DNA of 32,000 nt from Promethearchaeota archaeon (GTDB lineage: Archaea; Asgardarchaeota; Lokiarchaeia; Sigyniarchaeales; SOKP01), in NCBI GenBank assembly GCA_030606485.1, contig JAUWGH010000003.1, positions 30,001 through 62,000 of the forward strand, in the 5' to 3' direction. Of the stretch, positions 7,645 to 27,629 are shown in pieces (within the stretch, counting starts at the first letter, position 1; each line of letters starts with the position of its first letter). The notes beneath the pieces were generated by a model. It was given only the letters and a program-made list of their open reading frames with translations. It made no database searches and was not told where the DNA came from. The position numbers and the translations under genes were made by a program.

Positions 7645-9054
7645 ATGTCAGACTCAGCTAAAAATATAATTAAATTTCTTTGTGACAGGTTTTTTGAATT
7701 AGATTATTATCCAACCAGTTTAAGTGGACTATTAGATTTACCAATAGATAAGTTGAGGGATTTTACGCAAAAGGATATTTCAAAATTTAATAAAATCGAT
7801 ATCAAAATATTACGTGATTTAACCACAATTAGTGAAGAAGAGTTTTTAGAACTTGCAACGCTAACAAACATGGATTTAAATATATTAAATAATGCAAAAG
7901 TTGCCGCTACTTTAATAGCAAATGCCTGGACTAAAAGAAAAGAATATATAAAAAAATCTCAGAGCAAAATCGTTGTAGCAGGGCTTGATTATGCAGGAAA
8001 AACATCTCTTATTAATAGATTAATGCATGATCATACTTATGGGGATTTGATTAATCTAGAGCCTACAATAGGCGCAAATATCCAAGAATTTGAATCGGAT
8101 AATTTAAACTTGATAATATGGGATCTTGGAGGGCAAAAAAGTAATTTAGAGGAATATATCCAAGAACCAGAGAAATTTTTTATCCAACTAGATGTTTTAT
8201 TTTTTGTATTTGATGCTCAAGATGATGTTCGCTATGAAGCTGCTCTTAAATATTTAAATGATATCTTAGAAATTCTTGAATTTTTAAAAGAAATTCCTTA
8301 TATCTTAATTCTTATAAATAAAGTAGATCCTGACATCGAAAAAGATCCCGATTTTCAAATCAAACTTGAATATTTATCTGATAAAATTACAAGAATCTTT
8401 CTTAAGAAACCAAAAAACGTAAACTATGAAATAATACAAACAAGTATTTATAATATTTATTCCCATGAGCCTGAAATCGTAAAAACCATAAAAAATGTTT
8501 TTTCAAAAGATATTATTGCGAAGAAAGAAAAAAGAGAAATGGAAATTGATGAAAAACTTCAGAGGATATTGGATATTAATTTTAAATTAATGGATAAAGT
8601 TGTTTCTGAACTCTCTGACATAAAAAGAGTTTTATATAAATTAACACCATCAGATCTAAAACAATCAATCTACGCCGTTCCTTTCGATAAAGTTCCTTCT
8701 GATTTTGTATCAACTCCCAAAAAAATTGCTAAAAAACCAATAACTGCAAAAATTGAAAAGAAAAAACCTAAAAAAAAGAAAAAATCTAAAAAATCCGCAG
8801 TTCCTACTAAAATTCCTAAACCTATAAAATTATCTCCGCAACCATCCAAAATTGGAGAAGCAATGGATAAATTAAGTCAAAAATTTGAAGAAAGCGAACA
8901 GATAATGGCATTGGAAAATTTAACACCACCCAAACCTCCTCCAAAACCACCGTCAATTCCCCCACAAAACATTATTAATCCTCGTAGCCAAATAATGTTA
9001 GAATTAAAAGATATCTTCAAAAAAAAGGGAATCGTGAAAAAAGACATTCCTTAA
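7645..9054 (+). CDS. Arf-like small GTPase with N-terminal HhH-like domain, coiled coil and Lys/Pro-rich C-terminal tail
   Basis: G1 GLDYAGKTS, G2 EPTIG, G3 WDLGGQ, G4 NKVD, G5 TSI. The N-terminus (LPIDKL...IKILRDL..ISEEEF) resembles helix-hairpin-helix folds. Tail ends PPKPPPKPPSIPP...RSQIMLELKDIFKKKG. Confidence 0.88.
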   Translation: MSDSAKNIIKFLCDRFFELDYYPTSLSGLLDLPIDKLRDFTQKDISKFNKIDIKILRDLTTISEEEFLELATLTNMDLNILNNAKVAATLIANAWTKRKEYIKKSQSKIVVAGLDYAGKTSLINRLMHDHTYGDLINLEPTIGANIQEFESDNLNLIIWDLGGQKSNLEEYIQEPEKFFIQLDVLFFVFDAQDDVRYEAALKYLNDILEILEFLKEIPYILILINKVDPDIEKDPDFQIKLEYLSDKITRIFLKKPKNVNYEIIQTSIYNIYSHEPEIVKTIKNVFSKDIIAKKEKREMEIDEKLQRILDINFKLMDKVVSELSDIKRVLYKLTPSDLKQSIYAVPFDKVPSDFVSTPKKIAKKPITAKIEKKKPKKKKKSKKSAVPTKIPKPIKLSPQPSKIGEAMDKLSQKFEESEQIMALENLTPPKPPPKPPSIPPQNIINPRSQIMLELKDIFKKKGIVKKDIP

Positions 9055-9292
9055 AAGAAGATTCTGTTTTGTTAATACTTCTAAGGATATTAATTAAACA
9101 AAAATAAAAGCTTTTAATTAACCCTAAAGTTTTAATAGCTGACTATTTATTTTTAGATTTCTTAGATGATAAGGGAACAAAACAAAATTAAATAGCTGTG
9201 ATCTTATTATTATTTTATAGCAACAATCCTCAAAAAAATAAATTTTCAATTATATTTTATCAAATATTAAGTAAATACAATGTGTATAAAAT

Positions 9293-9844
9293 TTGAAAGA
9301 TGCCACGTTTAAAATATGCATTTTTGGAGACGGAGGTGTAGGAAAAACATCTTTAACCAAAAAATTTGTAACTGGCTTATTTGATCCGGATTTGAAATTT
9401 ACAATTGGACTGGATTTTTTCGTTAAAAATTTGGAGATCAATGAAAAGTTAATATCCTTACAAATCTGGGATTTTGCTGGTGAATCTCGATTTAGATTTC
9501 TTTTACCAGACTATGTAAAAGGAGCATCTGGAGCAATTTTTATGTATGATATTACTCGATTTTCATCCATAAAAAATATGGAGGATTGGTTACTTGTTTT
9601 TAATCAAGGTTTAATTAAAACTGAAAAGCGATTTCCTATTATTATGGTCGGAGGAAAAGCAGATCTCATTCAGAAACGGGCAATTCAGAGCGAAGACGCT
9701 ATTGAGATAGCAAAAAAACAAAAATTTATTGGGTTTATTGAATGTTCCTCTAAAACAGGAGAAAATGTAGGAAAAATATTTATCACATTGGCTAAAACAA
9801 TGATAAAAGAAGCAGGTTTAATCCAAGATAATGTTTTGTTATAA
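9293..9844 (+). CDS. Rab-like small GTPase
   Basis: G1 GDGGVGKTS, G2 FTIG, G3 WDFAGE, YVKGASGAIFMYDIT, G4 GKAD, G5 ECSSK. The TTG start is forced by an in-frame TAA at 9287-9289. Confidence 0.93.
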   Translation: MKDATFKICIFGDGGVGKTSLTKKFVTGLFDPDLKFTIGLDFFVKNLEINEKLISLQIWDFAGESRFRFLLPDYVKGASGAIFMYDITRFSSIKNMEDWLLVFNQGLIKTEKRFPIIMVGGKADLIQKRAIQSEDAIEIAKKQKFIGFIECSSKTGENVGKIFITLAKTMIKEAGLIQDNVLL

Positions 9845-26114: not shown

Positions 26115-26123
26115 GAATCTAAA

Positions 26124-27629
26124 ATGGGTAAAAAGATAATTTTCGTTGGACCGCCTGGAGCGGGAAAAACTACCTTAAGAAAAGTCTTTTTTGAGGGAGA
26201 ATCTTCTTCAAGATTATTAGACTATGCATTGGAGCCTACGCATGGTAAAGAATCAGTTATTCTTCAGTTAAGTGAGGATGTTGGAGTGTTTGATCTAGCA
26301 GGTCAGGAAAATACAAGGTGGTTCGAAACAGATGACAAAGAAATTTTCTATGAATCAAAAATTCTTATAGTAGTTATTGATATTACAACGGACCATGAGA
26401 AAATTTTAGAGTTTATCGGAAAGGTTATTAAAACTCGAAATGAATTAATACCAACTGCAATCATTTATATATTAATTCATAAAATTGATTTGGTAGCACA
26501 AAAAACAATTAAAGCATTAAAATATAAAATTTCTGATGCTATTGGTAAGGAAAAGTTAGTTAAAATTGCATTTACAAGTATTCAGAAAGTGTATTTCCCC
26601 TCAACTTTTTCATTATTTATGGATATCTTAGATACATGTATAAGTGAAAGAGAAACTCCTGAAAGAATTGATTTGAATCTACTTCAAAATACTATTGATT
26701 TTTTATATGAATTACAAAAGAGTGTTTTAATTACGAAAAATGATTTACAGATAAGATTGAAAGCTCCTGATGAAATGATTGATTCTATAAGCAAACTATT
26801 GAGTAATAAAGGACATATTGATGTTTCAAAAATAAATGATAGAACAATTTTTAGTTTAACTGATAAAGGTAAAAATTATTTTAAAGAAATTTTAGATAAA
26901 TTTTCTCTGCAAAAATTGATTAAATTTGAGAAAGAACATTATAAGACAGAAGCCGCTTTAGGGCCAAAAGTTCCTCCATATTTAGGTTTTTTAGTGGCTG
27001 ATAAAGATGGAAAATCAATAATAAATGTAGAAGTATTTGACGGAGCTTTTGATTTATTCTTAAATACTGAAGAGGGAGCGATGAAAACTGATTTTGAGTT
27101 AATTCCTATGTTTATTAGTGCTTTAGAAAAATTCTCGGAAGAAATAAATATAAAGGACTTAGCAGGTTTTCAATTAAAGGGAACAAATATAGAAATGCAG
27201 ACTTTATCTTTTGAATTATATACGGTTACTCTTTTTATAAATCCAGAAACAAATGTTAAATTTTTTGAAGATCTAATCAGAGAATGGTTTGAAAATCTTT
27301 TTGAAGTACATAAAAAAGAAATTGAGTCTGCTATTGAGACAGGTTATATGACTAAAATTTCTAATTTAAATAAGGAAGGGAAAGAATGGTTGGAAAATCT
27401 TAACGAAAAATATAAAAACATGGCTATGAATCTAGAGATTTTTGATTTTGATCAAGCTAAAGTACTTTATCATCATATAGATGATATATCCGCAGATATT
27501 AATTTTAAATTTTCATTAATTTTAGAAAAAATTAAAAAATTAAAAATAGATTTGATGAAGGCGATATTAGTAGAAGACTTTCAAGAAGTAAAGGAAATTG
27601 CTAACAAAATCCGAGGAATCAAAGTTTAA
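26124..27629 (+). CDS. Rag/Gtr-like GTPase - winged helix - roadblock/longin-like - C-terminal helical (UVR-like) domain
   Basis: G1 GPPGAGKTTLRKVFF, EPT, DLAGQE, IHKID, TSI; wHTH wing FSLTDKGKNYF; FLVADKDGK...LIPMFISALEKFSEEI; tail KAILVEDFQEVKEIANKI. Starts 9 nt after the first Rag-like gene. Confidence 0.8.
   Translation: MGKKIIFVGPPGAGKTTLRKVFFEGESSSRLLDYALEPTHGKESVILQLSEDVGVFDLAGQENTRWFETDDKEIFYESKILIVVIDITTDHEKILEFIGKVIKTRNELIPTAIIYILIHKIDLVAQKTIKALKYKISDAIGKEKLVKIAFTSIQKVYFPSTFSLFMDILDTCISERETPERIDLNLLQNTIDFLYELQKSVLITKNDLQIRLKAPDEMIDSISKLLSNKGHIDVSKINDRTIFSLTDKGKNYFKEILDKFSLQKLIKFEKEHYKTEAALGPKVPPYLGFLVADKDGKSIINVEVFDGAFDLFLNTEEGAMKTDFELIPMFISALEKFSEEINIKDLAGFQLKGTNIEMQTLSFELYTVTLFINPETNVKFFEDLIREWFENLFEVHKKEIESAIETGYMTKISNLNKEGKEWLENLNEKYKNMAMNLEIFDFDQAKVLYHHIDDISADINFKFSLILEKIKKLKIDLMKAILVEDFQEVKEIANKIRGIKV

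Follow-up and report, generated by a model that had tools for sequence, protein, structure and literature searches.

Can a cluster of histidine kinases, receivers and small GTPases in an archaeal genome be regarded as one functional unit, or are these genes neighbours by accident? The question is raised by a 32,000-nucleotide (nt) stretch of a Lokiarchaeial genome (Promethearchaeia, Asgard; 3.75 Mb, 28 % GC), positions 30,001-62,000 of contig JAUWGH010000003.1, which is hereafter called the window and within which coordinates are given. It encodes LD, a 212-residue protein that joins a longin domain to a DHp-like hairpin without the phospho-accepting histidine, together with kinases, receiver (REC) proteins and Rag/Arf-like GTPases. 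A preliminary description of this DNA had interpreted the region as an integrated locus leading from two-component systems to small GTPases. On the evidence given below, we consider it rather probable that the locus is a copy of a conserved accessory module of Lokiarchaeia which ties a His-Asp phosphorelay functionally to Rag/Arf-like GTPases.

A gene set that recurs around LD

The phosphorelay part of the set comprises PAS kinases, a hybrid kinase, CheY-like receivers and RHH-DHp-REC proteins, and the GTPase part comprises A469, the pair R435 and R501 and, in most other genomes, RagS, a Rag-like gene of ~293 aa usually found downstream of LD there. Gene families were assigned by Pfam scans of the window proteins, and the members of the set present in the window are as follows.

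7645-9054, plus strand: A469, Arf/Rag-like GTPase, 469 aa (Pfam Arf 1.6e-21, Gtr1_RagA 3.6e-21)
12587-15439, minus strand: membrane-anchored histidine kinase with three PAS domains, 950 aa (Pfam PAS, HisKA, HATPase_c; N-terminal hydrophobic segments)
15465-16103, minus strand: LD, longin with His-less DHp hairpin, 212 aa (weak Folliculin match at 63-105 and HisKA match at 156-208)
16157-18463, minus strand: hybrid REC-PAS histidine kinase with N-terminal REC, 768 aa (Pfam Response_reg, PAS, HisKA, HATPase_c)
18663-19121, minus strand: REC152, stand-alone receiver (Pfam Response_reg 9e-20)
19144-21084, minus strand: cytoplasmic PAS histidine kinase, 646 aa (Pfam PAS, HisKA, HATPase_c)
21656-22024, minus strand: REC122, CheY-like stand-alone receiver (Pfam Response_reg 4e-26)
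22460-23320, plus strand: DHp-REC copy 1 (Pfam Response_reg; HisKA by our own hidden Markov model, HMM)
23784-24659, plus strand: DHp-REC copy 2 (Pfam HisKA, Response_reg)
24807-26114, plus strand: R435, longin-Rag fusion (Gtr1_RagA 86.5 bits, cut-off 22)
26124-27629, plus strand: R501, Rag-like GTPase (Gtr1_RagA 57.3 bits, cut-off 22)

A minus-strand run extends from REC123, a further receiver described below, to REC122 (11201-22024); within it the 950-aa kinase gene lies 25 nt downstream of LD and the hybrid kinase gene 53 nt upstream. The plus-strand run consists of the DHp-REC copies and the Rag-like pair, with a kinase remnant between the two copies on the other strand and a gap of 9 nt between R435 and R501. 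Pfam scans recovered every gene named in the preliminary description at its position, and the Rag-like pair does start 147 nt after the DHp-REC gene ending at 24659, on the same strand; the observation is thus confirmed, and the interpretation built on it is partly supported.

Full-length orthologues of LD (48-95 % identity) were found in 53 of 161 genomes of the class, and 19 of 40 close relatives have one. They are restricted to three families of a single order, with a patchy distribution even inside genera. A scan of GTDB species genomes gave 50 named LD loci, including that of the cultured Promethearchaeum syntrophicum MK-D1, all belonging to Promethearchaeota/Promethearchaeia bar a few differently labelled metagenome-assembled genomes. 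When the loci were annotated with HMMs built from this genome, a recurring order was seen: a histidine kinase, DHp-REC (minus) and an A469-type gene (minus), diverging from LD (plus), which is followed by RagS (plus) and two histidine kinases, and further along R501-type (minus) and R435-type (minus) genes, diverging from a REC122-type gene (plus). Lack of conserved synteny, which the preliminary description had named as the observation that would count against it, was not found, as about 50 Lokiarchaeial loci share the gene set despite shuffled order.

A GTPase gene lies immediately next to LD in 37 of 49 loci. Downstream of LD on the same strand, the neighbour is a GTPase in 26 of 47 loci and a kinase in 14 of 47, and the next same-strand gene, whatever its type, follows after a median of 37 nt. 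Upstream, 22 of 44 loci have a divergently oriented GTPase gene as the neighbour, across spacers of 186-443 nt; orthologues of A469 (40-56 % identity) lie divergently next to LD in 22/44. GTPase density within 5 kb of LD is 0.213 per kb (49 loci) as against 0.017 per kb for the background of this genome, a 12.5-fold excess, and a two-component gene is found within 5 kb of LD in 43/49 loci. Among the 17 well-flanked loci, which have at least 8 kb on both sides, a histidine kinase is present in 16, A469 in 14, and R435, R501 and REC122 in 11 each, while RagS (10), DHp-REC (6) and REC123 (3) are rarer. Of the receivers in the module REC122 is the best conserved, and its orthologues (55-65 % identity in these 11 loci) are usually divergent from the Rag pair.

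As a specific marker, the longin at the N-terminus of R435 was sought (strong match, E<1e-40) in 135 genomes of the family and was detected in 43, of which 38 also have LD. The two thus occur together in 38 genomes, LD occurs alone in 5, the R435 longin alone in 5, and neither in 87, an association across genomes far beyond chance. Given the patchiness within genera, the parts have therefore repeatedly been kept or lost together, and as about 50 related genomes contain this gene set, they very probably work together. That LD, a GTPase of ~470-500 aa of Arf/Rag-like type, R435/R501, a CheY-like REC and PAS kinases form a conserved unit is supported by these observations.

For an operonic Rag-like pair of MK-D1, which may or may not be the counterpart of R435/R501, a heterodimer model was presented by Tran et al. 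2024 (PMC10933270). An RNA run considered as evidence for transcription or operon structure of the MK-D1 locus was rejected, its contigs being 19-90 kb long with flat, genome-like depth.

The window holds a rearranged, partly decayed copy of this arrangement. A469 is 6.4 kb from LD here, whereas it is divergently adjacent elsewhere, and no RagS orthologue was found anywhere in this genome, the closest proteins being R501 and R435 at 33-39 % identity. Two kinase/REC genes of the window are remnants, and they are listed here with the genes outside the recurring core.

9293-9844, plus strand: RasL, Ras-like ('Rab-like') GTPase, 183 aa (Pfam Ras 5e-43)
10046-10339: open reading frame of 97 aa with two hydrophobic segments
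10617-11045: flavodoxin gene
11201-11572, minus strand: REC123, stand-alone receiver (Pfam Response_reg 5e-18)
11671-12597: radical-SAM gene
21134-21331, minus strand: REC fragment, 65 aa, partial duplicate of the C-terminal half of REC122 (REC HMM match and sequence comparison)
23334-23663, minus strand: histidine kinase remnant with only the CA domain (Pfam HATPase_c alone)

In G001, a genome of the same genus, the counterpart of the CA-only reading frame (23334-23663) is an intact PAS kinase of 668 aa, that of the 646-aa kinase (19144-21084) has 874 aa, and the 950-aa kinase (12587-15439) is absent from the corresponding place. Judged from sequence comparison, these differences suggest that paralogous kinase genes have recently recombined and decayed. 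The REC fragment (21134-21331), a near-copy of the C-terminal half of REC122 in which K-L replaces the conserved K-P, is probably the remnant of a local duplication.

With regard to the 17 well-flanked loci, Ras-like, flavodoxin and radical-SAM genes occur near LD in the same-genus genome only. The flavodoxin and radical-SAM genes are passengers outside the conserved set and the Ras-like gene is probably another; as a conserved unit, the locus of the preliminary description is supported for LD, A469, R435/R501, the CheY-like REC and the PAS kinases, which recur together, and not for its Rab-like member. The 97-aa reading frame (10046-10339) has no relatives and no family, and no reading frame matching it by BLAST was found in G001. 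Upstream of the module lie a HEPN-domain gene (1966-2382, minus) and two 2-hydroxyglutaryl-CoA dehydratase D-component genes (4783-7260, minus), syntenic in G001 and unrelated to the module.

The LD protein and its neighbours

In an AlphaFold2 (AF2) model of LD built from 27 sequences (predicted local distance difference test, pLDDT, 85.8), residues ~15-141 adopt a longin fold, and a hairpin of two helices (146-176 and 181-208) comes after it. The predicted order of the longin is beta-beta-alpha-beta-beta-beta-alpha, with strands at 18-25 and 29-35, a helix at 42-53, strands at 59-63, 67-77 and 85-95, and a helix at 103-114. The best Foldseek matches of the model are NPRL2 in GATOR1, FLCN, DENND10 and a Lokiarchaeal longin; in VIA comparisons LD aligns with NPRL2 at Z 11.7-12.7 and with FLCN at Z 10.7-11.7 (root-mean-square deviation, rmsd, 2.7-2.9 Å over 127-129 residues, 16 % identity). 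The Pfam Folliculin family matches 24 of 27 LD-family members at E<=0.01 (best 3.8e-5), mostly under its curated cut-off, and searches of solved-structure sequences with the LD profile, or with its longin part alone, returned no FLCN or NPRL2 chain. Filing LD as a folliculin family member was rejected, its PF11704 match being below cut-off; LD resembles these longins.

In the conserved motif G-K-Y-D-x-x-L-G-P the residues K23, Y24, D25, L28, G29 and P30 are invariant, and G29-P30, found in 27/27 sequences, are the first residues of beta-2 in the model, in agreement with the GP motif of PMC12290439, which is placed where the beta-1/beta-2 loop ends or beta-2 starts. The triplet A81-R82-G83 is invariant as well and is placed in the predicted beta-4/beta-5 loop, inside the Folliculin match (63-105).

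The C-terminal hairpin resembles the DHp domain of histidine kinases. It aligns with the DHp of HK853 (4jav_A, 248-316) by VIA at Z 9.1 (rmsd 2.1 Å, 69 residues), has a weak Pfam HisKA match (17.7 bits) and is matched by hhalign at 80 % to the DHp of the DHp-REC proteins. Its first helix carries an I-R-S-x-x-N-T-I-x-G-F-like pattern resembling the H-box of the neighbouring kinases, in which the position of the histidine is occupied by M here and by L, M or V in all orthologues. LD ends after the hairpin and has no HATPase_c (CA) domain; its tail is a pseudo-DHp, not a kinase.

The LD family is narrow, with 37 representatives among 1.84 billion proteins, and no longer fused forms were found in a set of 5.8 billion proteins. 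An exhaustive search of the representatives gave two PAS-longin-DHp forms of 388-391 aa (P0133 and P0135), 32 % identical to LD. Genes of this PAS-LD type (loci L083:989-3724, L084 and L086:5777-8701) divergently adjoin a full-length R501-type Rag-like GTPase of 472-475 aa, which aligns with R501 at 29 % identity over 500 residues (E 2e-59), and the loci also adjoin type III CRISPR-Cas genes (Cas10/Cmr2, Cmr3, RAMPs, Cas_NE0113). Because of these loci, it can be said that two diverged LD lineages keep a Rag-like neighbour and that one of them takes a sensor domain directly. In P0144 (556 aa), another protein from the representative search, a DHp repeat of HisKA type occurs six times in tandem, and Pfam recognises no further domain at E<=0.01.

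Amongst the GTPases, A469 consists of an N-terminal helical region, a G domain at ~103-275 with the motifs GLDYAGKT (G1), DLGGQ (G3) and NKVD (G4), a coiled coil, and a Lys-rich and poly-Pro tail. With equal Arf and Gtr1/RagA scores (1.6e-21 vs 3.6e-21), it may be Arf-like, as it was labelled earlier, or Rag-like. In its C-terminus (8700-9054) a stretch rich in Lys is accompanied by a run of Pro residues and by a helix at the very end; 26 orthologues conserve the Pro run and a terminal R...ELK..F.k.G motif. A WH2-like tail had been suggested earlier for this region. The gene at 9293-9844, previously called Rab-like, is of the Ras family (5e-43), Ras-like rather than a true Rab; two of its motifs are atypical, G3 reading DFAGE, with Glu for the catalytic Gln, and G4 reading GKAD in place of N-K-x-D.

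R435 and R501 carry GxxxxGK[ST], DxxGQ and HKxD and score above the Gtr1_RagA cut-off, as Rag/Gtr GTPases do. R435 consists of a longin, a Rag-like G domain and a C-terminal roadblock-like region, and R501 of an N-terminal Rag-like G domain, a winged helix-turn-helix-like middle region that matches the RagS C-terminus at 95 % by hhalign, a roadblock-like stretch and a coiled coil. The roadblock-like regions are suggested by sequence pattern, and hhalign between the two gave 0.6 % with shallow alignments. The N-terminal 128 residues of R435 are a predicted longin (AF2 pLDDT 87.9) whose best matches are GATOR1 NPRL2/NPRL3, followed by DENND10, Ykt6 and Lst4; it has conserved W10-D11 and then G15, and lacks both the Pro and the Arg finger. 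None of three query regions, namely the two termini of R435 and the roadblock-like part of R501, was matched to the LD longin by hhalign (less than 1 %, from shallow alignments with an effective number of sequences, Neff, of ~2.8), and the fold of the R435 longin was settled by AF2 instead. All three Rag/Arf-like GTPases have intact G1, DxxGQ and N/HKxD motifs, and because they keep DxxGQ an arginine could be supplied in trans. A complex prediction for R435 with LD scored 0.00, which weighs neither for nor against binding.

The kinases and receivers of the locus score above Pfam cut-offs and are in this sense classical two-component proteins. REC122 has the expected E-D near the N-terminus, L-D-I-Q, T-S and K-P. 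DHp-REC copy 2 retains His at the H-box position (24126-24128), and copy 1 has Tyr there (S-Y-V-L-K-E; 22784-22786), which recalls a DivL-type pseudo-kinase. The RHH-HisKA-REC architecture has been reported for Lokiarchaeum by Galperin et al. (PMC5847659).

What LD may do, and competing explanations

Considering these features together, LD would be the coupling device between the phosphorelay and the GTPases, a proposal for and against which we see the balance as about even. Its longin would act on A469, RagS or R435/R501, most likely by supplying R82 in trans; that LD is an arginine-finger GTPase-activating protein (GAP) for at least one of the adjacent Rag-like GTPases is, on motifs and models, doubtful though worth stating. 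Its pseudo-DHp would dock a phosphorylated receiver or a kinase DHp, as DivL does with DivK~P, or would simply dimerise LD, and the docking option, by which the state of the phosphorelay would gate the state of the GTPases, is likewise doubtful. The complete scheme, in which LD is an R82 GAP switched by receiver or kinase docking, possibly with a two-longin pocket shared with the WD longin of R435, is quite unlikely to be right in every part.

Several points weigh against such a reading. Longin domains are more often platforms for guanine-nucleotide exchange factors, or adaptors, than GAPs. Generic longins (VAMP7, Sec22b, sigma-adaptins) also align with LD at Z 9-10.6, so that GAP-type longins stand only 1-2 Z units higher, and the Folliculin match (PF11704) of the window LD reaches 18.7 bits against a curated cut-off of 23.3. 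R82 is no more than a candidate for the catalytic Arg of FLCN/NPRL2, proposed from its predicted loop position, and the DHp hairpin may be a dimerisation module only. In the window LD is flanked by kinases and not by GTPases, and RagS is absent. The Fisher P of 1e-22 for the co-occurrence of LD and R435 overstates the support, related genomes being non-independent. The case as a whole is made from gene content, neighbourhood, co-inheritance, motifs and predicted structure.

The competing explanation that survives best confines the coupling to transcription: the DNA-binding RHH-DHp-REC proteins would be the end of the phosphorelay and would control expression of the neighbouring GTPase genes, and the LD hairpin would merely dimerise a longin adaptor that works independently of phosphorylation. 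We hold this to be unlikely. In its favour, the RHH-HisKA-REC architecture is a known Lokiarchaeal one (PMC5847659), DHp-REC genes lie directly upstream of the Rag pair across the 147-nt gap and in many loci are again neighbours of A469 and LD, no LD orthologue retains the DHp His, and a Lokiarchaeal longin amongst the structural matches of LD (PDB 8yqg) is known to dimerise. However, DHp-REC is present in only 6/17 well-flanked loci, as against 16 for histidine kinases and 11 for REC122. LD moreover retains residues resembling an H-box (I-R-S-x-x-N-T-I-x-G-F), which would be superfluous in a helix that only dimerises, and in the PAS-LD fusions sensor input is taken directly.

Signals could also flow in the opposite direction, with the GTPases as inputs and LD as a pseudo-kinase decoy that reads GTPase state, its His-less DHp heterodimerising with, or blocking, kinases or receivers. 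The position of LD inside a same-strand kinase/REC run in the window (gaps of 25 and 53 nt), the same-strand kinase that follows it in 14/47 loci and the 80 % hhalign match of its hairpin to the DHp of the DHp-REC proteins are consistent with this, and there is a precedent in the actinobacterial conservons, in which a kinase is under the influence of a GTPase together with a roadblock protein (PMC4316618). The invariant Arg and the GP motif are, on the other hand, features of catalytic GAP longins (PMC12290439), and Pfam scans of the locus revealed neither a roadblock or MglA-type pair nor a CvnC-like gene; we regard reverse flow as improbable.

As for clustering by chance, an iterated HMM search found 64 small GTPases in this genome. 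The 4 GTPases per 20 kb of the locus compare with an expectation of 0.34, and one other 20-kb window also has 4; under uniform placement some 20-kb window with at least 4 arises with P = 0.23, and because 23 % of uniform placements give such a window, GTPase density alone proves little. The contrast with the background, named as a condition in the preliminary description, is strong around LD (12.5x over 49 loci) and weak within this genome alone. Of the 12-13 REC domains that the genome encodes 7 lie in the locus, as do 4 of the 13 CA (HATPase_c) domains of histidine-kinase type, which makes it the genome's main His-Asp locus. Only 0.3 % of random positions for a 13.5-kb segment place 4 or more GTPases within 4 kb of its ends. 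Two-component loci with a GTPase within 5 kb number 6 of 13 against 2.6 expected (P=0.026), which gives modest support. Chance or hitch-hiking without any functional link, which the abundance of GTPases, the second such window and the passenger genes (Ras-like, flavodoxin, radical-SAM) would allow, is very improbable indeed in view of a neighbourhood conserved across three families despite rearranged order, the joint gain and loss of LD and R435, the diverged LD paralogue that again adjoins a Rag-like GTPase, the fusion of longin and DHp in one protein, and loci at 46-68 % identity that do not form a single recently transferred near-identical island.

Two further pairings of kinase and GTPase in this genome may be recorded. 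At C1:238417-242187 a DHp-REC-like gene and a REC-PAS hybrid kinase are accompanied, at a distance of 431 nt, by a GTPase fragment of 64 aa, and at C8:80664-84933 a kinase of 1136 aa has a Ras-like GTPase of 180 aa 329 nt upstream of it.

Known systems and significance

Fusions of NPRL2-like Asgard longins to two-component domains were described by Liu et al. 2020 (bioRxiv 10.1101/2020.10.19.343400), who put forward the surmise that two-component systems with eukaryote-like regulators are at the heart of growth control in Asgard archaea, and who found most genes for eukaryotic signature proteins outside conserved neighbourhoods. According to Tran et al. 2024 (PMC10933270), the GTPases of MK-D1 can in general not be assigned to their regulators from the arrangement of the genes. 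A study of 2025 (PMC12290439, Traffic 2025) reports that the GP motif is confined to catalytic GAP longins (SMCR8, C9orf72, FLCN and NPRL2) and one Asgard longin class; the same paper describes GP/Arg Asgard longins and asks whether ArfR or Rag GTPases are their partners. LD shares with the Asgard NPRL2/FLCN-like longins the fold closest to NPRL2/FLCN, GP at the start of beta-2, an Arg between beta-4 and beta-5 and a fusion of two-component type; however, a family joining a longin to a His-less DHp, and its Rag/Arf-GTPase neighbourhood, are not described in these papers. Our literature search found no paper describing a longin and pseudo-DHp family or its conserved neighbourhood of Rag/Arf GTPases and kinases. 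The present work adds the table of LD and R435 co-occurrence, the PAS-LD paralogue and the Rag-like gene beside it, the recognition of a WD...G longin in R435, the finding that receivers of this genome are concentrated in the locus, and the genus-level rearranged copy without RagS.

The eukaryotic longin GAPs, namely FLCN-FNIP acting on RagC/D, GATOR1 (NPRL2-NPRL3-DEPDC5) on RagA/B and C9orf72-SMCR8 on Arf, resemble the locus in combining an Arg-bearing longin (here LD) with an Arg-less one (here R435). The WD...G spacing of R435 is that of C9orf72 W33-D34...G38 (PMC12290439), and the Rag GTPases of the locus are encoded as an adjacent pair. Unlike these systems, the locus has no DENN, DEPDC5 or WDR41 parts and no TOR kinase, its second longin is fused to a GTPase, and its Arg-longin carries a kinase hairpin. 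The nutrient sensing proposed in the preliminary description is an analogy only, as no TOR-like kinase is involved (Liu et al. 2020).

Kinases or response regulators are also coupled, both genetically and functionally, to a Ras-superfamily GTPase and a regulator of the roadblock/longin superfamily in the actinobacterial conservons CvnA-D (PMC4316618) and in the Frz-RomR-MglA/MglB system of Myxococcus (PMC3441718). In contrast to these, the GTPases of the locus are Rag/Arf-like and not MglA-like, the regulator is a longin with a candidate Arg finger and not an MglB roadblock, and stand-alone receivers and RHH-DHp-REC proteins are present. Assignment of the locus as a conservon (kinase, MglB-like roadblock, CvnC, MglA-like GTPase; PMC4316618) was rejected: its GTPases belong to Gtr1/RagA, Arf and Ras, and no roadblock-only or CvnC-like gene is found.

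A third comparison concerns the hairpin. DivL of Caulobacter is a histidine-kinase-like protein in which Tyr replaces the phospho-His and which reads DivK~P; it keeps its CA domain and regulates another kinase. By analogy, the His-less DHp of LD could still dock a phosphorylated receiver, although LD, in contrast to DivL, has no CA domain and carries a longin output.

Which Asgard GTPases pair with which longin or roadblock regulators is the question left by Tran et al. 2024 and Traffic 2025, and the locus offers conserved candidate pairs: LD with A469-type, with RagS-type or with R435/R501-type GTPases. It also supplies a defined upstream input in its PAS kinases and receivers, and its presence in the cultured MK-D1 makes the proposals testable. 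Should LD be a phosphorelay-gated GAP, the switch logic of Rag/Arf GTPases would predate eukaryotes and would first have been plugged into bacterial-type signalling. Lokiarchaeia would then have a prokaryotic Rag/Arf control resembling that by FLCN, GATOR1 and C9orf72-SMCR8, driven by a His-Asp phosphorelay instead of the sensors of the TOR pathway.

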